A stretch of DNA of 64,000 nt from Candidatus Marinacidobacterales bacterium (GCA_965226495.1 OZ245365.1:5536001-5600000); one strand, 5' to 3'; counted from the stretch's first letter, positions 16,269 through 51,035 are shown. The notes: generated from the letters alone by a model not told the origin. Program-made: numbers and translations.

Positions 16269-17342
16269 TATTTGTAGTGTAGCGCCATGACTAATCGGCA
16301 ACACCCAGACGCCCTCGAGATAGACGCCTACGAAACTCCAGATCGGAGATCCAAATGGTCGGATTTCGACTCCCCTTCGTCACCGTAAACCTATGAATTC
16401 AAGCCCTCGGGCTATTGGCTCGCTTGTTGCATTATTGCAGCCGGTGTGGTTTGACAGGTCGACATCATGAGACCTATGCTTCGTCTACCAATGTCATCCC
16501 GGTCCATCTGCAATGTTCTGGAGTGGCCGGCGATTGTGCCGAATCTTCGCTTGGCGCGATAAGGAGCATTAATGTCTAGAAAACTTCCTTTGATTGCTAG
16601 CTTTCTCGCATTGTTTTCCCTGAGCGTGCCGGTGATGGCCCAGCGCACCACCGGGAACATCGTTGGAGTCGTGTCCGACGAGACCGGCGCGATTTTGCCG
16701 GGAGTGACAGTCACGATAGCTGGTCAATACCTCATGGCTTCTCAAACCGCGACGTCCACCGCGTCCGGACGCTACCGGTTTCCCAACTTGCCGCCCGGTC
16801 CCTACACACTGACCTTCAGCCTCACCGGGTTCGCTTCCTTAACTCGCAGCGACCTGCGGTTGGAAACCGGCGCGACTCTCGAAGTGAACGTTGTGCTCAA
16901 GTTGAGCCAGGTCGCCGAGTCGGTCACCGTGACCGGAGAACAACCGGTCGTCGACGTACGTTCCTCCGAAATAAGCACCAACTACGATCGCGAATGGGTA
17001 GAGAATGCTCCGCTTCCACGCTTCACCTTCTTCGACCTCATCAACGCGGCCCCGGGCATCAGCCAGAACGACTCACAGGACTCCCGATCCACCGCACTCG
17101 GCTCGGGAACAGACGAGAACTCCTATATGCTGGACGGCACAGATTTCACGTCCCCTTTTACCGGGGCCGCCTGGCCCTGGCCCAACACCGATGCCATCGC
17201 CGAAGTGGAGGTGCTGTCCTTAGGAGCTCCCGCCGAGTACGGCAACCTCTCCGGCGCTGTCTTCAACATCACCACTCGCCAGGGAAGTAACGACTTCCAC
17301 GGGGATGTGAATTACTACTACCAATCCGAGGGCTTGACGGCT

Positions 17343-18420
17343 TGTGACTTCAAGTTTGAAGCGCACCATTCGTTAGTTCCCATGGAAACGTTCCTCCGGT
17401 GTGCGGTAACCGAGCCTCTTGCGGGGCCGTGTGTTGAGCTTCTTTGCGATACCATCGCAGTGGCGTTGCGTGAGCGCTGCTTGGCTGGTGCGCTTCGGCA
17501 GGTATTGTCGTAGCAATCCATTGAAGTTCTCGTTGCTGCCTCTCTCCCATGAGTGATAGGGAGTTGCAAAGTAGAACTTGACGCCGGTCGCTTCCTCGAC
17601 GGATTCGTAGTCGTGGAACTCCGTGCCATTGTCCGCGGTGATGGTCTTGACCTGATCCGGCACCCGCCGGAGCAACATCTTCGTTCGCTGGCTAGTGCCG
17701 AACATGCTGCGGTCGGACAGTTTGCCGATCAGCGCATAGCCCGTCTTTCGTTCCACGAGCGTGGTGACGCAGTCCGGCGCGTCTTTTCCTACCACGGTGT
17801 CAATCTCCCAGTGGCCAACGGCACGGCGCTTGTCGATACAAGACGGCCGCTCGGAGATGTGACGCTTCCCGGCCAGGCGGCCTCGGCTGTCGTAGCTGTT
17901 GTGGCGCTTGCGTCTAAGTTTGGGCGAGCATCGAAGGTGGCGGTATAGATGTCCTCCGGCCTCCTTGTCCCGCCAAACGTGGGTGTAGATCGTCTCGTGG
18001 CTGATCGAGAGCTCGCCGTGAAGGCGCAGGTGGCCGGAGATCTGCTCTGGGCTCCAGTCGGCCTTAAGCTTCTTCTCCACCAGGGCAAAGTCGGCCTTTG
18101 TGAAGTACTGGTTCCGGCGAGACCGCGAGCGTCGTCCGTTCGTTCTCTCGATGGCCTTGCTCGGCCGGTAGCATCCATCACTAGGTGAGCTGTTCCTCCT
18201 GACCTCTCTCGAGATGGTGCTCCGGTGGCGCCCCAGGCGCCGCGCGATCTCGGCCGAGCAAAATCCCTCCCGTCGCAGCGCCGCGATGGTGTAGCGTTCT
18301 TCCGAGGTGATCTGGTAATAAGTCATTAGCGAGTCCCCATTCTTGGTTGTTTGAGGAATCGTGGCACATTCCAGGTCACCTCATCCGGGAGCTGTGTTGC
18401 ACTTACTTTATGAATTCGCG
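17343..18420 (-). mobile_element. IS30-family insertion sequence (1078 bp) with a 3-bp target duplication GCT
   Basis: Imperfect terminal IRs: TGTGACTTCAAGTTTGAAGCGCACCA versus CGCGAATTCATAAAGTAAGTGCAACA (reverse complement of the right end). GCT at 17340-17342 and 18421-18423. Confidence 0.9.
17373..18326 (-). CDS. IS30-family transposase
   Basis: IARRLGRHRSTISREVRRN HTH, WSPEQIS, GHWEIDT, TADNGTEF, WERGSNENFNGLLRQYLPK, LNTRPRKRLGYRTP. Confidence 0.97.
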   Translation of the reverse strand: MTYYQITSEERYTIAALRREGFCSAEIARRLGRHRSTISREVRRNSSPSDGCYRPSKAIERTNGRRSRSRRNQYFTKADFALVEKKLKADWSPEQISGHLRLHGELSISHETIYTHVWRDKEAGGHLYRHLRCSPKLRRKRHNSYDSRGRLAGKRHISERPSCIDKRRAVGHWEIDTVVGKDAPDCVTTLVERKTGYALIGKLSDRSMFGTSQRTKMLLRRVPDQVKTITADNGTEFHDYESVEEATGVKFYFATPYHSWERGSNENFNGLLRQYLPKRTSQAALTQRHCDGIAKKLNTRPRKRLGYRTPEERFHGN

Positions 18421-20492
18421 GCTAGTAACACCACTCCGGCGCAGGACGACGGCTTCCCCTTCAACCGCGACTTTTACAACGACTTCACGGCGCAGGTCGG
18501 TGGACCGATCATAAAGGACAGGCTCTGGTTTTTCGGCTCCTACCAGCACCAAGAGGACTCCAGTACCCAGCCCGGCGTCAATCCGGACTTCCCGACCCTG
18601 ACCGAGAGCGACCGGATGTTCGTCAAGGTCAATTATCAAATTAATGACAACCACCGGCTGCTCTTCGCTCTCCATAACGACTGGTACTTTCTGCCAGGCG
18701 AACAAAATGCCAACACCGCTCCCACCACTGTGGGTGTAGAGTCCGGAAACAACCCGTCACCCAATCTGACGTACACCGGAATATTCTCGGCAAACACTCT
18801 CGTCGAGGCCCGCTTCTCGGGTTTCTACGGCACCGACCACGGAGACCCCATAGTGGAGGGAGAGCCCCGAGTAAAACCTCGCTTCTACAATCTCGATACG
18901 GGTCAGATTACGGGAGGGGTCTACTACTGGTACGACAGCAACGTTTTCAAGACCGGCGTTTCCGGCAAAGTCTCTCACTACGCCGATCAGTTTCTCGGAG
19001 GAAGCCACGACTTCAAGTTCGGCGCTCAGTACAGCCGGGGCGGTGTGGACAACGGCGCCTACGGTGCCAACGACTTCATCTACACGTACGAGTACTACGG
19101 CGAGCCCTATGCCTATGGATACTCCTACGATGCCTTTGGCTACGGCGGCATCGCAGAAACCATTGGTGTCTTTGTCGATGACAGCTGGGCGGTCAACGAC
19201 CGACTCACGCTCAACCTAGGTCTTAGGTACGATCACAAAGTCGCCTCGGTCCCCGAGCTTTCCGTCCCTGACGCGGCCGGGAACCTTACGGGTGCAACCT
19301 TCCCCGCGAGGGATCTCTACACGTGGGACACTATCTCACCCAGGCTGGGCTTCAACTTGAGACTGACCACGGATGGAAAAACAGCCCTGAAGGGACATTG
19401 GGGTCGCTACTACCGGGGCATCGTGACCGGCGAGTTTGTCTACGAGCTCGGGTTGACACCCGCCTCGACTTTTGCCGGGTCCTATGATCTAGCCACACAG
19501 CAGTTCACAAGCCTAGAAGAGTTCGAGTCCAGTTTGAACAAGGGCGTGGATCCGGACTACTCCAACCCATACACCGATCAGTTCATTATTGGTTTCGAGA
19601 GAGAGCTCACCACCAATTGGGGGTTCTCCGCCAACTATGTTCACAAGCGGGGGAGGAACAACGCCGCCTGGAGCGCCACCGGTGAGTACGAGGAGATCAC
19701 CTATATCGACGACCAAGGCACAGATGCCACCGGCAATCCCATCACGGTCTTGGCTCTGGTGAGTGATCCAGGCGACCGCTTCTTTACCATCGGCAATGAC
19801 GACCGGATGTCGACCGACGTGAACGCCGTCACCATCACGCTCAGGAAACGGATGTCCGACCGCTGGCAAATGACCAACTCCCTGGTCTTCATGAAGACTA
19901 GCGGACGACTGCCTTCTAGTATCGACTCCTTCGGTCGTCAGAACGCTTCTCTCGTTTTCAGCGACTTCGGACAAAATCCCAACGACTTCATCAATACGGA
20001 CGGACGACTCGTCAACGACCGACCGGTGGAGTTCAAGACCTCGCTCGTCTACGAGTTCCCCTTCAACCTCATGCTCGCGGCCGGTTGGAGGCTTCAGAGC
20101 GGGAAGCCATGGGCGAGGACGGTTCGGCCCGAGGGAACCGGGCTCGTCACCGAGATCTTGGCAGAGCAGATTGACGGTAGTCGCCGCGTTTCCACGTGGA
20201 ACCTCCTCGATCTGAGAGCGCAATATGCCATCGAGCTTGGCGGCGGAACGAATGTCGCGTTTTTCGGCGACGTTTTCAATCTGTTCAACGAAGACGCCAA
20301 CGAGGAGGTCTTGAGCACGCTCGGCACGTCGGAAAGCTTTGACTTTCCTAGCTTCTTCGTGCTTCCACGCCGTTTGATGCTTGGCGCGAAGTTCCGCTTT
20401 TAGAAGAAACACGACCGCACGTCGAGCTTTGCTCCTACAAGGCCCCGGGGCTTTTTTTCGCCCGATGGAGTGGACGGGAATCTAAGCCCATA

Positions 20493-22088
20493 ATGTCCGT
20501 TGCCATGGGTTTTACACCGAGCACCGCCTGTCTCCTTTTGCTTTTGCACGCGCCCGGTGCTTTTCCGCAAACCGTGAAGAAGTCCTTGGCTCAATTGGAA
20601 CGACAAGGATTCGAAGCGCTCGGTCAAGGAAGATACGATAGCGCCCTTGACGCATTCGAGTTGCTTCTTGTCGTGAACCCCGACCGCGCCTCTGCCCATT
20701 ACGGCAAAGGGCTCGCACTCACGGGCATGCTGAACTACTCGGCTGCCGTCGACTCCCTCGAGAATGCCGCTTCGCTCGATCCGAATCGTGCCGAGACCTG
20801 GCGACGACTCGTGACGCTCTATTCCCAGCTTCAGCGCGACGAGAAGGCGAAGCGCGCTTTTGAGAACGCTCGAAGACTCGCGCCGGTGCCGGATGAGGAA
20901 AGGCTAGGCCTGGCGCGCGCCTTGAGAAAGACGGGATGGCTTAAGGAAGCCCATGCTTTGCTCCGCGAGGCAGAGCCTCTCGGTGCGGAAGAATATTTCG
21001 AGCTTGGCCTCCTCGCACTGGAGGAAGACGACTCAGGCCGGGCGGAAGCGCACTTCGAGAAAGCGACCGCGGACCCGATACGCTCCGCAGCGGAGGCGGA
21101 ATACCAGTACGGACGGACGCTCGAGACTCTGGGTAAGCCTGAGCCGGCGATCCAGCACTACCGTCGGGCGCTATCCAAGGATCAGCGCCTTTTGAGCGCT
21201 CGCTTCCGATTGGGGACTCTCTTGCTGCGTACGGGCGATGCCGAGCAAGGTCGGGCTTTGCTGCGCGGGTACGAAGAGTTGCGTCAATGGGATCGGAGGG
21301 TAAATCTCTTGCTCTCCATGGTGACATCCGGAACACTCTCCGACACTGCAGAGCGAGAAAAGAAGCTCGAGCTCGTGAATCTATTTCTTCAAGCCGGTGC
21401 CTTCGAAGACGCAGGCGCACTCATCCACTCGGCACTGGCCAAGGACTCGAACGACCCCGCATTTCTCGTTGCCCAAGCGGAGTGGCTCCTTTCGTCGGGA
21501 CAGCCGGATAAGTCACGGGTGGTTCTGGACACCTTGGTCTCAGTATCCAGCCCTCTTCCAGATGCGCTCTGGCTTTCCGGTCGGCTCCACATTATTGAAG
21601 GTGAACCGAAGCAAGCGCTCGAATCCTTCCAACGGCTCATCGCGATCGATCCCGATCCACCCGCCGCCCTCTTGAAGGAGGTCGCCACCGCCTACGCCAT
21701 GAGCGGGCAAAGCAGTCAAGCCGAGACCTATTTTCACAGGGCTATTCAGAAAGATCCGCTGCTGGCGGGAGCCCAGGCGGGGCTCGGCGCGCTTCTAGAG
21801 TCCACAGGACGCCTCGAGGAAGCGGAGCAGCGCTATCGCCGCGCCCTCGAGATCAATCCCGATCTTCTTTCCGCACAACAGCTACTTGCCGAGCTTCTTC
21901 TGCGAAGAGGCGATGCAGAAGATGCGGTGACGCTATTGCGAAGGAGTGTAACCACGAACCCCGCGAACGCACTGCTCCGTCGCAACCTCGCTCGCGCTCT
22001 CGAGAGGGTCGGGAACATCGCAGAAGGGGAGGCGGAGCTGGAAAAGGCTCGAGAGATCGAAGCGCGGAAAAGCCCGCGCACGAAATGA
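20493..22088 (+). CDS. exported tetratricopeptide-repeat protein
   Basis: Signal-like N-terminus and many TPR units (AHYGKGLAL, ARFRLGTLL, YRRALEINPD). Confidence 0.85.
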   Translation: MSVAMGFTPSTACLLLLLHAPGAFPQTVKKSLAQLERQGFEALGQGRYDSALDAFELLLVVNPDRASAHYGKGLALTGMLNYSAAVDSLENAASLDPNRAETWRRLVTLYSQLQRDEKAKRAFENARRLAPVPDEERLGLARALRKTGWLKEAHALLREAEPLGAEEYFELGLLALEEDDSGRAEAHFEKATADPIRSAAEAEYQYGRTLETLGKPEPAIQHYRRALSKDQRLLSARFRLGTLLLRTGDAEQGRALLRGYEELRQWDRRVNLLLSMVTSGTLSDTAEREKKLELVNLFLQAGAFEDAGALIHSALAKDSNDPAFLVAQAEWLLSSGQPDKSRVVLDTLVSVSSPLPDALWLSGRLHIIEGEPKQALESFQRLIAIDPDPPAALLKEVATAYAMSGQSSQAETYFHRAIQKDPLLAGAQAGLGALLESTGRLEEAEQRYRRALEINPDLLSAQQLLAELLLRRGDAEDAVTLLRRSVTTNPANALLRRNLARALERVGNIAEGEAELEKAREIEARKSPRTK

Positions 22089-22217
22089 AGACCGCTGTCC
22101 TAGGACTGCGTTATTCTGACCGCTTGAGAAAGGGGGTCAAAGCCTCTGAGTTACGGAGACTTAGGAGGGAGTTAGCATGCTACACGCGGATTTTCCAAGA
22201 ATCGCAGCGAACTCCGA

Positions 22218-23555
22218 GTGACGAGCTACCACGCCCCGCTCGCTTGGCTTGGCGGCCCATCGCTGGCGAGCAACGTCCTTTTCAGTGTCGAACATGGGCA
22301 AGTCACCAACATCCGAGCGGCTGCGGACCCGACCGAGGCATCCCGACTCGGCGGCATCGTCCTCCCCGGCTTGGTAAGCGCGCATTCGCATGCTTTCCAC
22401 CGCGCACTTCGTGGGAAGACGCATGGTGAAGGTGGCGATTTCTGGGCCTGGCGAAACAAGATGTACGCAATGGCCAATCGGCTCAACCCGACCACTTACC
22501 GCCGCCTTGCGACCGAGGTGTTCGGCGAGATGCTGCGAGCCGGGATCACAGCAGTCGGCGAATTTCACTACCTCCACCATCAGCCCGACGGCGCTCCGTA
22601 TGCTGTAAGGCATGCAATGGAACACGCTATCGTGGGAGCCGCCCGCGACAGCGGTATCCGCCTCACGTTGATCGACACGCGCTACCTGTCCTCCGACATC
22701 GACGGATCGCCCCCGTTGCCCGAGCAACGGCGCTTCTCCGATGGGACCGTGAACGACTGGGCTACGCGAGTACGAGAACTCGCCGAATCACTCGACACGC
22801 CGACAGTTCGACTCGGTGTGGCCGCCCACAGCGTGCGAGCCGTGCCGGCACCAGATCTTCCGAACGTCGCGGCCCTCGCCGACGAGCTCGACGCGCCGGT
22901 CCATGTCCACATATCGGAGCAGCGCGCCGAGAACGCCGCGTGTCGCGCCGCGCATGGCACCAGTCCCACAGCGCTCCTTCGCGACACCGGAGTGCTGAAC
23001 CAGCGTGCGACGGCCGTGCACGCAACTCACTTGGAGGAAAGCAACATCGCAATCTATGGGTCTTCCGGAGCAGGCGTCTGCTTGTGCCCGACGACCGAAC
23101 GCGAGCTCGGCGACGGGATCGGCCCGGCCATCGAATTGCGTGACGCAGGCGTACGACTCAGTCTCGGGAGCGACAGCAACGCGGTCGTCGATCTGTTCGA
23201 AGAGGCACGCGCCTTGGAGTTAAACGACCGGCTCCGTCTCGAACGACGCGGGATTCATGCACCCGAGCATCTGATGACGGCCGCAACAAGCGGCGGGATG
23301 CGCGCGTTGGGATGGGGCGACTGGCGGCCGCTCTCGGTCGGCGCTCCTGCCGACTTCATCGTGCTCGACCCGAACGCTGCGGAACTTGCCGGGTTCGAAA
23401 CGGCCGACGGTGTCGGCGGGCTGCTGTTCGCGGCAACGCCGAGGGCCGTCTCGGACGTGGTGGTGGCCGGAGAACAGGTCATACGCAATGGTGAAAACGT
23501 GGGAGGACAATCTCCAACCGGTCTGGCTGCGGCAATCTTGGCGGTGTCGTCATGA
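22218..23555 (+). CDS. hutF: formimidoylglutamate deiminase
   Basis: PGLVSAHSHAFHRALRG, DFWAWR, VGEFHYLHH, HSVRAV, HISEQRAE, CPTTERELGDG, GSDS. Confidence 0.92.
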   Translation: MTSYHAPLAWLGGPSLASNVLFSVEHGQVTNIRAAADPTEASRLGGIVLPGLVSAHSHAFHRALRGKTHGEGGDFWAWRNKMYAMANRLNPTTYRRLATEVFGEMLRAGITAVGEFHYLHHQPDGAPYAVRHAMEHAIVGAARDSGIRLTLIDTRYLSSDIDGSPPLPEQRRFSDGTVNDWATRVRELAESLDTPTVRLGVAAHSVRAVPAPDLPNVAALADELDAPVHVHISEQRAENAACRAAHGTSPTALLRDTGVLNQRATAVHATHLEESNIAIYGSSGAGVCLCPTTERELGDGIGPAIELRDAGVRLSLGSDSNAVVDLFEEARALELNDRLRLERRGIHAPEHLMTAATSGGMRALGWGDWRPLSVGAPADFIVLDPNAAELAGFETADGVGGLLFAATPRAVSDVVVAGEQVIRNGENVGGQSPTGLAAAILAVSS

Positions 23556-24784
23556 CAATCTCCGTTGACACCGTGATCGTCGACGGGATCGTTGCAACCT
23601 TGCAATCCGGATCGGCTGGATCGGAGCCATACGGGCTGCTCAGCGACGCCGTCATAGGGATCACCGATGGCCGCATCAGCTATCTCGGTCCGGAGGTCGG
23701 TGCCGAAACCAAGCAGCGTTGGTCCGTCGGCGGCCGGTTGATCACACCCGCCCTCATCGACTGTCACACCCACCTCGTCTTCGGAGGCGAACGCATCACC
23801 GAGTTCGAGCGACGACTCGGTGGCACCACTTACGAAGAGATTGCGAGTGCCGGCGGCGGCATCCTTTCGACAGTCACAGCCACCAGAGCCGCGTCGAACG
23901 ACGAACTTTTTGATTCCGGCGCTCGCCGCCTCCGCTGGCTACTACAGAGCGGTGTCGGCACGGTGGAGATCAAGTCGGGCTACGGGCTGAATGCCCACCA
24001 TGAGCTACGCATGCTGCGGGTGGCCCGACGTCTCGGCGACGCGTTGCCGGTGCGGATCGTGACGTCGCTCCTCGCGGCTCACGCCATCCCTCCCGAACAT
24101 CGAGCAGACCCGGACCGTTACATCTCCGAGATCTGCGAAGACATGATCCCGGCGGCGGCGGAAGAGGGATTGGCCGATTCTGTGGATGCGTATGGCGAAC
24201 GGATTGCATTTACACCGGCACAGGTCCGCCGGGTCTTCGACGCGGCGCGCGACGCCAATCTAGCAGTGCGATTGCACGCCGACCAGTTGAGCGATTCGGG
24301 CGGTGCCGCTTTGGCGGCCGAGTATGGCGCGTTGTCCGCGGATCACCTCGAACACACCTCCGATGCAGGCGTTGACGCGTTGGCGACTGCGGGCACGGTC
24401 GCGGTACTGATCCCAGGAGCGTCCGCCTTCCTGAACGAGGAAGCACGCCCACCGATCGCAAAGATGCGTCGCGCCGGCGTGCGGATCGCGGTCTCAACCG
24501 ATCTCAACCCCGGGACCGCTCCATTCGGTTCCCTCCAAGAAGCGATGGCATTGGCCAGCGCTCGCTTCCGGCTGACACCTGAGGAAACGCTGGCCGGGAC
24601 CACTCGACATGCGGCGGCCGCTCTCGGTTTGGGCGACACCGGGGTTATCCAGCCCGGCATGCGTGCCGACCTCACGGTTTGGGACGTGAAGTCGCCGGCG
24701 GCTTTGTCGTACTGGTCCGGGGCACCACTCTGCGCGGAGGTATGGATCAACGGAATCATCCACTATGAAAGAGACGAACCATGA
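23552..24784 (+). CDS. hutI: imidazolonepropionase
   Basis: PALIDCHTHLVFGG, GGGILSTV, EIKSGYGL, HADQL, SADHLE, STDLNPGT. Confidence 0.95.
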   Translation: MTISVDTVIVDGIVATLQSGSAGSEPYGLLSDAVIGITDGRISYLGPEVGAETKQRWSVGGRLITPALIDCHTHLVFGGERITEFERRLGGTTYEEIASAGGGILSTVTATRAASNDELFDSGARRLRWLLQSGVGTVEIKSGYGLNAHHELRMLRVARRLGDALPVRIVTSLLAAHAIPPEHRADPDRYISEICEDMIPAAAEEGLADSVDAYGERIAFTPAQVRRVFDAARDANLAVRLHADQLSDSGGAALAAEYGALSADHLEHTSDAGVDALATAGTVAVLIPGASAFLNEEARPPIAKMRRAGVRIAVSTDLNPGTAPFGSLQEAMALASARFRLTPEETLAGTTRHAAAALGLGDTGVIQPGMRADLTVWDVKSPAALSYWSGAPLCAEVWINGIIHYERDEP

Positions 24785-25362
24785 TCCGCCCCATTCCACA
24801 GATCGGCGACCCCATCCTGCGAACCGCCGCCACCGCCGTTACCCTCGAAGAGCTCCGTGGCGAGGAGACGCAGCAACTCATCGACGACATGATCGAAACG
24901 ATGCGCCATGCCGAAGGTGCCGGAATCGCCGCCCAGCAAGTCGGCGTCCCGGTAAGAATCTGCATCCTCAGTGTGGAGCGGAACGAGCGGTATCCCTACA
25001 AGCCACCGCTTCCCCTCACCGTGCTCGTCAACCCGGTGCTCGAGGTTCTCGAGGACGTCACCTTTCTCAACAACGAAGGCTGCTTGAGCGTGCCGCTACG
25101 TGGCGATCTCCATCGTTTCATGACCGTACGCGTCCGCTCCTTGGATCGGCATGGGGAGAAGTTCGAACAGACCTATCGCGGTTTGAGTGCCGGCAGCGTG
25201 CAACACGAGCTCGATCATCTCGACGGGCACCTCATCGTCGACCGGATCCACGACCCCACTACGTTCTCGACTTGGGACAACTTCAAGATGTACGGGTATG
25301 ACGACTACATCCGGCGGATCCAGCCCGTGATCGAAAAGACCGAACCGCGATCGGAGAAGTGA
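24781..25362 (+). CDS. def: peptide deformylase family protein
   Basis: All three PDF motifs: GAGIAAQQVG, EGCLS, QHELDHLDG. ATGA overlap with hutI. Confidence 0.9.
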   Translation: MIRPIPQIGDPILRTAATAVTLEELRGEETQQLIDDMIETMRHAEGAGIAAQQVGVPVRICILSVERNERYPYKPPLPLTVLVNPVLEVLEDVTFLNNEGCLSVPLRGDLHRFMTVRVRSLDRHGEKFEQTYRGLSAGSVQHELDHLDGHLIVDRIHDPTTFSTWDNFKMYGYDDYIRRIQPVIEKTEPRSEK

Positions 25363-25397
25363 TAACCGGCATCGCCTCGCCGGCACTTTACCTAGAC

Positions 25398-25700
25398 CTA
25401 CTTGCGGGCGGTCTCGGTATCCTTCTCAGCTTTTTCAGGTGCAGGATTTTCGGGCTCCGGAGGTGGACTCCAGAAGTTCGGGCTGCCTCCGGCCTTTGCG
25501 GCATGCTCACCATGGTAGAGAGCGCAGTTGAAGACGATGCGGAAGGTGCCAAACGATTGGCCTCGCCATTGCGGTCGAAAGCCAAGCAGGACGACGTGAC
25601 CCTTGCCGTGGCGAACATCCAAAGCGGCAGCGAAACCGTTGATGTGCTCCTCACCTAGCAAGTAGCCCGACAGAAGGGGAGAGCCCGCCTCGCCAGGCCA
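25398..25700 (-). pseudogene. C-terminal remnant of a large M14-type zinc carboxypeptidase-like protein
   Basis: [16 protein letters not shown]...[27 protein letters not shown] resembles the C-terminal domain of such proteins. No start or N-terminus. Confidence 0.6.
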
Positions 25701-25956
25701 CCATCGCAATGAGTGTGGGTATCGATGAATCCGGGAGCGACGACCAAACTCTCAGCATCAATGATCTGGGCGGCCGTTTTCCCGGCCAGCTCCCCTATCT
25801 CGACGATGGTGTCTCCCATGATGCCGACGTCGCCTCGAAACCCGGAATCTCCGGAACCATCAACGTTCCGTTCGTTCTGATGAGGATGTCAAAATCTTCA
25901 CCAGCGCTGACACAACCGAACGAGATCAAAATGAGAATTAAGCTGCGTTCGGGCAT
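25700..25956 (-). pseudogene. N-terminal remnant of an N-acyl-D-amino-acid deacylase (amidohydrolase)
   Basis: Manual translation: MPERSLILILISFGC...DFDILIR / VDGSGDSGFRGDVGIMGDTIVEIGEL...[21 protein letters not shown], then an abrupt end. Confidence 0.75.
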
Positions 25957-26067
25957 GGTTCCCCTCGTGGCCCGGAACTGTACCGACGGAAACGTAGCCC
26001 GGCAAGAGTAGAGCGCCCTGAACCACCGTGGGGAGATTCCTTTCCGAGTGTGTTACGCTCGCGCGAA

Positions 26068-26922
26068 ATGCCAGTCTACAACGGCACCGGCATGCTCAAG
26101 AAGGTCTTGCTCTGTCCGTCCACCTATTACGAGCTGGTTCCAGTCGACGACTACGCGCGAACCGCGCTCGAACGAGGCGACAAGGTCGACCACGAGAAGG
26201 CCGAGGCACAGCACAACGAACTAGTTGATATCTACCGAGATGCAGGGGTTGACGTCTTTTGGACCGAGGAGCCCGACCCCACCCGCCACTACGCAGTCAA
26301 CGCGCGGGATTTCGCCGTCAACTCTCCTGAAGGGTTCGTCATCTGTCGCTTCAAGTATTCGGAGCGCCGAGGAGAAGAGATTCCCGGCGAAAAACAATTA
26401 CGGAAATTGGGCTACAACATTTTCGGACACATCGAGCGCGGTTGTTGGGAAGGCGGTGACAATAAGTACATCGACGACAAGAATCTCGCCACCGGAACAG
26501 GGGAGCGAAGCACCTGGCCCGGTATTCACAACGCACAAGAGATATTCGCCAAACAAGGCATCAAGGTGCATGGCATTCCCTTCCCACCGAAATGGACTCA
26601 TCTTGATTGTCTTTTCGCTCCCGTCGCCCCGAAGCTGGCTTTGATCGTGAAATCCGAGGTCCCCGACTGGTTCGTGGGATTTCTCGAAGGCCGAGAATGC
26701 GAGCTGGTAGACATCCCCGTAGAAAAAGCCGAAGGAGAGGTCGCCCTCAACGTATTGTGTCTTGGCAAGGATCGAGTTATCTCTTTCAAAGACAACACGT
26801 ATATCAATGACATCTTGAAAGGCCTGGGGCTAACTGTCTACGCACCAGATCTAAGCGAGTACACCGAGCGCGGTCAGGGACCGCATTGCCTGACCTGCGA
26901 GCTCGATCGAGATCGGGAATAG
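26068..26922 (+). CDS. amidinotransferase / dimethylarginine dimethylaminohydrolase-family (pentein) enzyme
   Basis: AEAQH, NARD, ERRGEE, WEGGD, HLDC, and C-terminal GQGPHCLT with the catalytic Cys. Confidence 0.85.
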   Translation: MPVYNGTGMLKKVLLCPSTYYELVPVDDYARTALERGDKVDHEKAEAQHNELVDIYRDAGVDVFWTEEPDPTRHYAVNARDFAVNSPEGFVICRFKYSERRGEEIPGEKQLRKLGYNIFGHIERGCWEGGDNKYIDDKNLATGTGERSTWPGIHNAQEIFAKQGIKVHGIPFPPKWTHLDCLFAPVAPKLALIVKSEVPDWFVGFLEGRECELVDIPVEKAEGEVALNVLCLGKDRVISFKDNTYINDILKGLGLTVYAPDLSEYTERGQGPHCLTCELDRDRE

Positions 26923-49358: not shown

Positions 49359-51035
49359 ATGCCCAAGTCTGCCATCCCTCCCGACATAGAGATCGCGCAA
49401 TCGGCCAAGATCCGACCCATCGTGGACGTAGCCTCTGAGCTAGGACTGGCGCCCGAAGACATCGAACCTTACGGCCACTACAAGGCCAAGGTGCGTCTCG
49501 AGGTGTTGGATCGAGCCAAGAAGAAAGCTCGTTTGGTCTTGGTGACCGCTACCAGCCCCACTACAGCGGGGGAGGGGAAAACCACCATGACCGTCGGGCT
49601 GGCTCAAGCGCTCAGGCGGCTGGGTCACAAGGCGGCGCCGTGCATCCGTGAGCCGAGTCTCGGTCCGCTCTTTGGTATGAAGGGCGGGGCGGCAGGAGGC
49701 GGTTACTCTCAAGTCATCCCGATGGAAGACATCAATCTGCATTTCACCGGTGACTTTCATGCCATTACTTCTGCGCACATGCTCCTTTCCGCCACCATCG
49801 ACAACCATCTTCACCAAGGGAACACACTGGGACTGGACCCCCGCCGGATCCCATGGACTCGATGCTTGGACATGAACGACCGAGCCCTGAGACAGGTCGT
49901 GGTTGGGTTGGGCGGCCCGACCGGAGGTGTTCCACGGCAAGAAGAGTATGTCATCACCGCCGCGAGCGAGATCATGGCGATCCTTTGTTTGTCGACGGAC
50001 CTTGCCGATCTAGAAAAGAGGCTCGGGAACATCCTCGTGGGCTACAACCAGGAGCGAAAGCCGGTCCGGGCGCGCGAGCTCGAGGTCCAAGGCGCGATGA
50101 CGATCCTTCTCAAAGATGCCTTGAAGCCCAACCTGGTACAAACGCTCGAAGGAGGACCCGCCTTTATTCACGGCGGACCCTTCGGGAATATCGCGCATGG
50201 ATGTAACTCTATCCTGGGAACTCGAATGGCCATGGCTTTGTCCGACATCGTCGTCACCGAGGCCGGTTTCGGAAGTGATCTGGGAGCCGAGAAGTTCTGC
50301 GATATCAAGTGTCGCGCGGCGGGTCTCACTCCCGACGCTGCGGTCATCGTGACTACGGTAAGAGCACTCAGGTACAACGGTGGTCAACCGAAGGGTGAGA
50401 CCGGGGAGAATTCAAAAGCGCTCGAGGCTGGCTTCGCCAACTTGGATAAGCATATCGAAAACGTCGCTACGTTCGGCTTGCCTGCTATCGTCGCGGTGAA
50501 TCGCTTCCCCACGGACACCGACGCCGAAATTGAACAAGTGATTACCCACTGCGAGAAGGTCGGCGCCGCCGCGGCAGATGCCGATATCTTCTCGAGAGGG
50601 GGAGAAGGGGGAGAAGCCTTGGCCGAGGCGGTGGTCGAGGTGCTGGAAACTAAGAAGTCCGAATTCCGGTTCGCCTACGAAGTCGACGAGCCGATCAAAG
50701 ACAAGGTCCACGCGGTGGCCACCAAGATGTACGGTGCCGACGGTGTCGACTACACCGCCAAAGCGGAGAAAGCGATCGCCGCTTTAGAGCGAAACAGTCT
50801 TTCCAATCTTCCCGTCTGTATCGCCAAGACGCAGTATTCACTCAGCGACGAGCCGACCAGGCTCGGGCGCCCACGAGGTTTCCGGATCCAAGTGCAAGAC
50901 GTGATCGCCTCCGCCGGAGCAGGATTCCTAGTCGTGTTGGCAGGGTCGGTGATGAGAATGCCGGGGCTTCCTCGCGTTCCGGCCGCTACTCAGATGCACA
51001 TCGGCCCCGATGGAAAAACGGTGGGACTCTCGTAA
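49359..51035 (+). CDS. fhs: formate--tetrahydrofolate ligase
   Basis: GEGKTT, REPSLGP, GGAAGGGYSQV, HGGPFGNIAHG, TEAGFGSDLGAEK, AKTQYS, MPGLP. Confidence 0.97.
   Translation: MPKSAIPPDIEIAQSAKIRPIVDVASELGLAPEDIEPYGHYKAKVRLEVLDRAKKKARLVLVTATSPTTAGEGKTTMTVGLAQALRRLGHKAAPCIREPSLGPLFGMKGGAAGGGYSQVIPMEDINLHFTGDFHAITSAHMLLSATIDNHLHQGNTLGLDPRRIPWTRCLDMNDRALRQVVVGLGGPTGGVPRQEEYVITAASEIMAILCLSTDLADLEKRLGNILVGYNQERKPVRARELEVQGAMTILLKDALKPNLVQTLEGGPAFIHGGPFGNIAHGCNSILGTRMAMALSDIVVTEAGFGSDLGAEKFCDIKCRAAGLTPDAAVIVTTVRALRYNGGQPKGETGENSKALEAGFANLDKHIENVATFGLPAIVAVNRFPTDTDAEIEQVITHCEKVGAAAADADIFSRGGEGGEALAEAVVEVLETKKSEFRFAYEVDEPIKDKVHAVATKMYGADGVDYTAKAEKAIAALERNSLSNLPVCIAKTQYSLSDEPTRLGRPRGFRIQVQDVIASAGAGFLVVLAGSVMRMPGLPRVPAATQMHIGPDGKTVGLS

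Follow-up and report, generated by a model that had tools for sequence, protein, structure and literature searches.

Histidine degradation of the five-step Pseudomonas type includes HutI (imidazolonepropionase) and HutF (formimidoylglutamate deiminase), the latter converting N-formimino-L-glutamate to N-formyl-L-glutamate and NH3, and the step after HutF belongs to the deformylase HutG (EC 3.5.1.68; PF05013, TIGR02017). Formimidoylglutamase (arginase fold, TIGR01227) and glutamate formimidoyltransferase FtcD (TIGR02024) likewise lead to glutamate and remove histidine's one-carbon unit, but they act on formiminoglutamate and bypass N-formylglutamate. The fold of peptide deformylase (PDF; Def, EC 3.5.1.88) has, to our knowledge, been studied almost solely as an antibiotic target on nascent peptides. 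Here we analysed a stretch of 64,000 nucleotides from a Candidatus Marinacidobacterales bacterium (GCA_965226495.1, OZ245365.1:5536001-5600000), which is called the window below. It carries a chained hutF-hutI-def2 block, in which the last gene encodes a protein of the PDF family. A first-pass annotation made from the sequence proposed that this PDF paralog had been recruited as an N-formylglutamate deformylase. The genomic comparisons support this reading by a separate def1-fmt pair, the lack of a canonical hutG, the linkage with hut genes and PDF-HutF fusions, and Def2 is most probably a non-homologous replacement of HutG, that is, a candidate N-formyl-L-glutamate deformylase.

The hutF-hutI-def2 block

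The three genes of the block are as follows.

22218-23555, plus strand: hutF, GTG start, 445 aa; NF006681 580.9 bits (cut-off 362), TIGR02022 461.8 bits (cut-off 413)
23552-24784, plus strand: hutI, 410 aa; TIGR01224 427.9 bits (cut-off 298)
24781-25362, plus strand: def2, 193 aa (P0001); PF01327 141.4 bits (cut-off 22.8), NF001159 139.1 bits (cut-off 125), TIGR00079 107.5 bits (cut-off 103.95)

Both junctions, hutF/hutI and hutI/def2, were read in the DNA as ATGA start/stop overlaps, and the coordinates of the open reading frames (ORFs) and the profile scans agree exactly with the chain described in the first-pass annotation. Def2 passed all three curated profile cut-offs (PF01327, NF001159 and TIGR00079), and the PDF motifs which had been called intact were all seen in its translation: G46-A-G-I-A-A-Q-Q53, E99-G-C-L-S103 and H142-E-L-D-H146. 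Neither hutG nor fmt was found in the window, as noted earlier, and tblastn with an FGase-family protein and with the genome's own Fmt gave best E values of 0.2 and 1.2, respectively.

The block and both of its borders are bridged with zero differences by contigs of other public runs, namely X2 (21854-25556), X5 (20400-23988 and 23960-25724) and X6 (21846-23989 and 23960-25724), so the block is not an assembly chimera. In X10 one contig spans the whole 7 kb, and it may itself be the source of the window DNA. The block is near-identical in 20 runs from 8 studies, and none of the runs listed for it is an RNA data set. A scan for promoters and terminators showed nothing above the shuffled expectation.

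In the proposed mechanism, Def2 would be a PDF-fold metalloenzyme recruited to small-molecule catabolism, which would split N-formyl-L-glutamate, the product of HutF, into formate and L-glutamate. The translationally coupled genes of the block would cover the steps from imidazolonepropionate to glutamate in the order HutI, HutF, Def2, and the first two steps of the pathway would come from a resident hutU-hutH locus. The block itself would have arrived in one piece from an Acidimicrobiia-type hutU-hutF-hutI-def2-hutH operon. The window also has the Fhs (formate--tetrahydrofolate ligase) gene located in the first-pass annotation (49359-51035, PF01268 845.3 bits); it lies 24 kb from the block, is unlinked to it and is a plausible sink for the formate released.

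Def2 resembles HutG in the proposed reaction, in its step after HutF and in the genomic association with hutF, hutI and hutU, but the two proteins have no relation in sequence or fold, and the Pfam scan of Def2 returned PF01327 only. Def2 differs from PDF in being unlinked to fmt, with a separate def1-fmt pair in the same genome, and Def2-type proteins, unlike PDF, are embedded in hut operons and in some organisms are fused with HutF. The formimidoylglutamase and FtcD candidates of the genome are unlinked to the block. Our literature searches gave no paper in which a PDF-family protein is connected with hut operons or with N-formylglutamate; judged by their listings, the matches mention these terms only separately.

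Relatives of Def2 and linkage with hut genes

The closest proteins in a large collection showed 55-73% identity with Def2 and had about 190-196 aa. Their named sources are Acidimicrobiia or Actinomycetota metagenome-assembled genomes, and wherever the source gives a name it is always "peptide deformylase". Among 40 relatives of the same genus, family or order (including G007), the best match had 43% identity, which is comparable to the 39% of the organism's own second PDF (Def1). No Def2-type protein was found in 400 further Acidobacteriota genomes: seven matches at E<=1e-30 (39-47% identity) lacked the signature of the Def2 clade. Their motif 1 reads G-V/I-G, Trp precedes EGCLS, A-R-V/I precedes HExxH and RYPYKP is absent, and no hut gene was present in their +/-1.5-kb flanks.

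A search of 80 public genome-contig loci gave 13 with 48-58% identity, and in 10 of them def2 was directly followed by hutF and hutI. These 10 loci belong to Thermoleophilia and Acidimicrobiia and mostly have hutH-hutU in front; four further def2-hutF-hutI loci in metagenome contigs bring the hut-linked loci in public contigs to 14 altogether. The gene order in Thermoleophilia and other Actinomycetota is hutH-hutU-def2-hutF-hutI. PDFs linked to fmt (seven genome-contig and two metagenome loci) had at most 44% identity to Def2 by tblastn, and the seven are nearer to Def1. A gene of the def2 clade beside fmt was not found in any locus examined. All 13 other checked genomes bearing a def2-like gene had at least two PDF genes.

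For co-occurrence we used 251 evenly sampled Acidimicrobiia genomes (including G281), counting as def2-type any gene with E<=1e-30 to the window protein, its context ignored, and as hutF any gene with E<=1e-60. There were 31 genomes with def2-type genes, 38 with hutF and 30 with both; it means that def2 was present in 30 of 38 hutF genomes versus 1 of 213 hutF-less genomes. The neighbourhood analysis of this PDF subclade, suggested in the first-pass annotation, revealed strong hut linkage, since 29 of the 31 Acidimicrobiia def2 genes lie on the same strand as hutF and within about 3 kb of it. The other two are the gene of genome G146 and a copy at a contig edge. Four arrangements were seen in the Acidimicrobiia coordinates.

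def2-hutF: 10 genomes
hutF-def2: 8 genomes
hutF, about 1.2 kb, def2: 7 genomes
hutF, 2.7-3.0 kb, def2: 4 genomes

Thus hutF is the tightest and commonest neighbour, adjoining 18 of the 31 def2 genes directly. Canonical HutG (TIGR02017 above cut-off) was found in none of the 251 Acidimicrobiia genomes, and weak matches to it of 27-56 bits occurred in 6. FGase-family matches (PF05013) were present in 22 of the 251 genomes, neither enriched nor depleted in those with def2; ten full-length ones scored at most 142 bits against the HutG model, two of them without any match.

Fusion proteins

Among 44 longer homologues of Def2 (E<=1e-20), the PDF domain was combined with amidohydrolase (15), urocanase (11) or PhyH (3) domains. 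Nine amidohydrolase fusions were scanned, and formimidoylglutamate deiminase was the best family of the partner in all nine, with 265-649 bits, five of them passing the NF006681 cut-off. The usual layout is PDF, linker and HutF, and one bacterial call of 1021 aa has the order PDF-HutF-HutI. Three of the nine (P0141, P0159 and P0161) come from eukaryote transcriptome collections, and for this reason operon read-through or co-regulation cannot explain them. The fused PDF domains keep Ala47, N-x-R-Y-P-Y-K-P, Arg107 and Arg112, and 19 of 20 have A-G-T (A-A-T in P0154); they fall inside the group which holds all hut-linked PDFs, with a node support of 77%. The direct adjacency of hutF and these fusions together indicate the product of HutF as the substrate.

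The urocanase-PDF calls could be gene-calling merges and were given little weight. In P0121, P0125 and P0126 a PhyH domain (phytanoyl-CoA dioxygenase family) is joined to a PDF part that clusters with actinobacterial hut-linked PDFs; they may be merged gene calls as well, or may point to a further hut-associated gene.

Phylogeny of the PDF clade

PDF trees were built from 229 rows with FastTree and from 90 rows with IQ-TREE (LG+C20, quick search). All 43 hut-linked PDFs fell in a single clade of 61 rows (support 98), and the 45 fmt-linked PDFs were outside it. The rest of this clade consists of 7 rows that lack hut neighbours and 11 rows whose contigs are not long enough for a judgement. Def2 of the window is placed within a clade of 10 rows (support 95), all members of which are hut-linked Acidimicrobiia genes. 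The signature of the large clade consists of N-x-R-Y-P-Y-K-P, a motif 1 with G-A-G, A-G-T ahead of HExxH and a tail with T-W. The whole PDF-fold clade, annotated as "peptide deformylase", is likely to be the missing N-formylglutamate deformylase of HutF-type histidine catabolism, which would be standard in Acidimicrobiia and Thermoleophilia, would occur in some eukaryotes as a fusion with HutF and would move between phyla within a hutF-hutI-def block, as into the present Acidobacteriota genome.

Two rows from metagenome contigs, L197 and L203, form a divergent pair of clade members. In L197 the gene has a PLP-dependent decarboxylase on one side and a SET-domain gene on the other, after which comes an ammonium transporter, and L203 has an ORF of the same size downstream. 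There is also a methyltransferase-PDF fusion call (P0130).

Fold and substrate pocket of Def2

An AlphaFold2 model of Def2, built on 46 relatives, reached a predicted local distance difference test score of 94.3 and a predicted template modelling (TM) score of 0.90. The top ~40 Foldseek matches were all PDFs, and the best was 1SV2 of Leptospira (E 3.9e-20), with a TM score of 0.95 by target, a root-mean-square deviation (rmsd) of 1.2 A over 171 columns and 42% identity. Against true PDFs in general the model showed 1.0-1.4 A rmsd, and the best structural match by sequence search was likewise the Leptospira PDF (131.6 bits). Def2 and the Leptospira interrogans enzyme (1SV2, 1SZZ, 1Y6H) have in common the fold, the three motifs, the metal ligands and an enlarged loop N-E-R-Y-P-x-x-P after strand 60-65. 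The first-pass annotation took the RYPYKPP insert as a mark of the subclade. This did not stand for the insert itself: the Leptospira-type true PDF carries NERYPGTP versus NERYPYKPP in Def2, so the enlarged loop is not diagnostic. It stood for Tyr73-Lys74, where the Leptospira PDF has Gly-Thr, and for some other positions.

All of the 46 closest proteins keep the three PDF motifs unchanged, with the Cys and two His that bind the metal and with the catalytic Glu. At position 2 of motif 1, where Def2 has G-A-G and peptide deformylase G-V/I-G, Ala (Ala47) is found in 97% of the 43 hut-linked rows and Val, Ile or Leu in 97% of the 45 fmt-linked rows. Positions 138-139, before HExxH, are Gly-Thr/Ser in the hut-linked clade versus Arg-Ala/Val in fmt-linked PDFs. 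Tyr73-Lys74 is invariant in the 43 hut-linked rows; the 46 closest proteins all have Lys74, and at least 90% of them have Tyr73. The clade is also distinguished by Arg123 and usually Arg133, and by Asn98 before EGCLS, a position which is Glu in fmt-linked PDFs, Trp in most others and Tyr/Phe in the Myxococcota members. The stretch from the Pro that follows EGCLS to Arg107 is shorter by one residue in Def2 than in peptide deformylase. Unlike in the Leptospira PDF, a conserved tail, Asp158...Thr164-Trp165, leads into a long C-terminal helix (residues 165-187 in the model).

According to PMC3101196, the Met side chain binds in a hydrophobic S1' pocket made up of the motif-1 Ile (AtPDF Ile42 = EcPDF Ile44), Phe58 and AtPDF Ile130, and its contact with the pocket drives closure of the active site; the CD loop of the Leptospira PDF is described there as mobile between open and closed forms. 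By offsets within the motifs, AtPDF Ile130 would correspond to position 139 of the window protein. The hydrophobic S1' residue (Ile/Val/Leu) of the housekeeping type at position 2 of motif 1 is absent from Def2, which has Ala47. Taken together, this suggests that Def2 has an intact formamide-hydrolysing centre with a wider and more polar side-chain pocket, and its new basic residues may serve both carboxylates of N-formylglutamate. The glutamate side chain and the carboxylates would be accommodated by Ala47, Gly138-Ser/Thr139, Tyr73-Lys74, Arg107 and Arg133.

Other def and hut genes of the host genome

The host genome (G000) is a single contig of 6.34 Mb. It was advised in the first-pass annotation to look for a separate def-fmt pair, and we identified one at C1:2209232, where fmt (TIGR00460 304.8 bits) is immediately preceded by a second PDF gene, def1 (170 aa, PF01327 167.6 bits). 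Because of this pair, Def2 is not the housekeeping deformylase. A canonical hutG elsewhere in the genome, which would have spoken against the proposed role, was not found in G000 either: the sole FGase match is a C-terminal fragment of 132 aa directly behind an unrelated luciferase-like gene, with 26.6 bits versus the TIGR02017 cut-off of 278.75. The hutF of the window is the only hutF of the genome by profile search, and its hutI is the only one over the TIGR01224 cut-off. An intact resident hutU (953.7 bits) and hutH are located together at C1:2840518-2843689. The HutI profile gave 133 amidohydrolase-like matches in the genome, an unusually large expansion of this superfamily.

Evaluation of the proposed function and its alternatives

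Def2 as an N-formylglutamate deformylase is supported by its linkage and co-occurrence with hut genes, by the fusions and the phylogeny, and by the lack of the canonical enzyme. Several observations weigh against it, and some of them concern the genomic association. The co-occurrence counts overstate the statistical strength, because related genomes are not independent. The anti-correlation with hutG that the first-pass annotation expected was not shown cleanly: canonical hutG was not found anywhere in the Acidimicrobiia sample, and FGase-family matches are as common in genomes with both def2 and hutF (8 of 30) as in the others; those of the eight that were scored were weak and far under the HutG cut-off. 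Eight of the 38 hutF genomes (L313-L320: G086, G099, G134, G194, G230, G251, G257, G287) have neither a def2-type gene nor HutG, so another solution must exist there or these genomes are incomplete. The single hutF-less genome with def2, G146, has the order hutH-hutU-def2-hutI with no detectable hutF. Other points come from the tree and the structures. Six of the seven clade rows without hut neighbours come from Myxococcota or metagenomes (L062, L066, L070, L191-L193). They branch at the clade's unresolved base and lie near genes for an MvdD-like ATP-grasp, large methyltransferase proteins, GreA or a DUF255 thioredoxin. All six share Ala47, and five also have Tyr73-Lys74 and Gly138-Thr139 (L070 has Asn-Arg and Val-Ala there), which means that the pocket signature is not exclusive to hut loci. 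The seventh row (L118) is a frameshifted Thermoleophilia copy, without hut neighbours, nested among hut-linked rows. The nearest relative with a solved structure is the Leptospira PDF (42-43% identity); it shares the enlarged loop, and its actinonin-bound structure was deposited under the name of peptide deformylase.

Part of this evidence would fit an enzyme for another small molecule tied to the pathway, or one with broad activity on N-formyl amino acids for which N-formylglutamate is one of several substrates. N-formylisoglutamine, a formylated side product of the unstable imidazolonepropionate, would then be a candidate. The basal Myxococcota members, mostly with the pocket signature and free of hut linkage, the def2 between hutU and hutI in G146 and the eight hutF genomes without def2 or HutG are all in keeping with such an enzyme, but the tight adjacency to hutF in 18 of the 31 genomes and HutF as the partner in nine of nine scanned fusions make it unlikely. 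A further alternative is that Def2 is an ordinary second PDF acting on nascent N-formyl-Met peptides and that its place among hut genes is co-regulation or historical accident. Def2 does pass all PDF cut-offs, keeps every catalytic motif and matches the fold of true PDFs at 1.0-1.4 A, and two PDFs are common in bacteria, as in the 13 of 13 checked genomes. Such a role can hardly account for a linkage to hutF that persists through four gene orders in two actinobacterial classes, for hutF in 30 of 31 def2 genomes and def2 in only 1 of 213 genomes lacking hutF, or for the fusions in eukaryote transcriptomes, which operon co-regulation does not explain. No def2-type gene was found next to fmt in the loci examined, and the Ile which, according to PMC3101196, lines the Met pocket is replaced by Ala. 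We therefore consider an ordinary second PDF quite unlikely, and an N-formylglutamate deformylase remains the preferred assignment.

What the block does in its present host is a separate matter from the function of the enzyme. The only hutH of the genome (C1:2842176-2843689) is split by a 1-nt deletion after the G-A-S-G-D-L-A-P segment, whereas hutU, hutI and hutF are intact. In addition, an arginase-fold gene (C1:2843728-2844594) lies directly upstream of hutH, with formimidoylglutamase as its best family (137.9 bits, below the cut-off of 229), and FtcD (363 bits) is present at C1:3649554-3650438, adjoining an NtrX-like regulator. These findings also count among the weak points of the preferred assignment, and the HutF branch is not the sole possible route for formiminoglutamate in this genome; there are up to three possible fates, and N-formylglutamate, needing a deformylase, arises solely in the HutF branch. 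Together with the absence of hutF from all seven same-family relatives, the gene remnants flanking the block and an IS30 element 4 kb upstream, they would suit a recent passenger of little or no use, in a pathway broken or redundant. The hutH frameshift could be a real pseudogene or a sequencing error, the latter because it adjoins a short G run in a single-contig assembly. Three intact frames with their translational coupling kept, the block as the sole source of hutI and hutF in the genome and its near-identity across the 20 runs make a useless passenger highly improbable.

In the eight genomes with hutF alone, no shared alternative deformylase was found beside hutF; GcvT, a methyltransferase, a protein with a tRNA-editing domain and, in one case, an M20 peptidase are encoded next to it. 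These genomes may thus have an N-formylglutamate deformylase of a third type. The M20 peptidase is directly upstream of hutF in G099, and in G134 and G251 a methyltransferase with a winged-helix domain is located between hutI and hutF.

If the proposed function is true, Def2 would be the first case of a PDF-fold enzyme acting on a small molecule in catabolism, and it would show that this fold can evolve towards a free N-formyl amino acid as its specific substrate. A gap in the pathway would be closed, since 38 of 251 Acidimicrobiia genomes have HutF and none has canonical HutG, and other Actinomycetota and some eukaryotes may be alike. A systematic misannotation would be corrected, every source name seen being "peptide deformylase", with a bearing on the counts of PDF paralogues as used in genome surveys and in reasoning on PDF inhibitors. 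The window itself adds an inter-phylum transfer of the three-gene block, a natural experiment: the genes of the final three steps were passed jointly to a different phylum, from which it is argued that they form one functional unit.

Origin of the block

The three closest Acidimicrobiia genomes (G158, G166 and G150; Def2 identity 65-67%) and G302 have hutU-hutF-hutI-def2-hutH, the internal order of the window. The identities of the two partner genes to the window are as follows.

HutF: 58-60% in the four closest Acidimicrobiia, 38-40% in same-order Acidobacteriota
HutI: 64-68% in the four closest Acidimicrobiia, 43-56% in same-order Acidobacteriota

In a tree of 38 HutF rows, the window protein is sister to G150, G166 and G158 (support 99) inside an Actinomycetota clade (support 98), apart from its Acidobacteriota relatives. 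Identities and trees agree for Def2, HutF and HutI, and the acquisition of hutF-hutI-def2 as one unit from an Acidimicrobiia-like donor appears well supported by these comparisons. The G+C content of the block is the highest of the window (0.63 and 0.61 versus about 0.59). In same-order relatives, an ORF of 277 aa upstream of hutF was rejected as spurious; it had no family match in two libraries and is antisense to hutI.

Flanking features

The borders of the block contain the following features.

22178-22221, plus strand: ORF of 14 codons, MLHADFPRIAANSE, preceded by GGAGGG, which resembles a Shine-Dalgarno site; the TGA stop of the ORF and the hutF GTG start overlap (GTGA)
25398-26052, minus strand: frameshifted and truncated gene remnants in stop-to-stop translations, namely the N-terminus, with signal peptide, of a secreted amidohydrolase similar to D-aminoacylase, and the C-terminal end of a different protein
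25706-25828, minus strand: weak HutI-profile match (profile positions 6-49) within these remnants

In G150, G158 and G166 the end of hutU and the start of hutF are in the same GTGA overlap, and their last codons align weakly with the window. The small upstream ORF may therefore be a relic of the hutU 3' end from the donor operon. No remnants of hutU or hutH were found in the window by tblastn, just weak similarity at the DNA level at the hutU/hutF junction. The remnants directly downstream of def2 are probably a scar left by the rearrangement through which the block arrived. The next intact gene downstream (26050-26922, 290 aa) belongs to the amidinotransferase/DDAH/arginine-deiminase superfamily (PF02274 51.4 bits), and no link to hut was seen for it. 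On the upstream side, an IS30-family transposase (17373-18326, minus strand) interrupts a TonB-dependent receptor gene (16572-20403).

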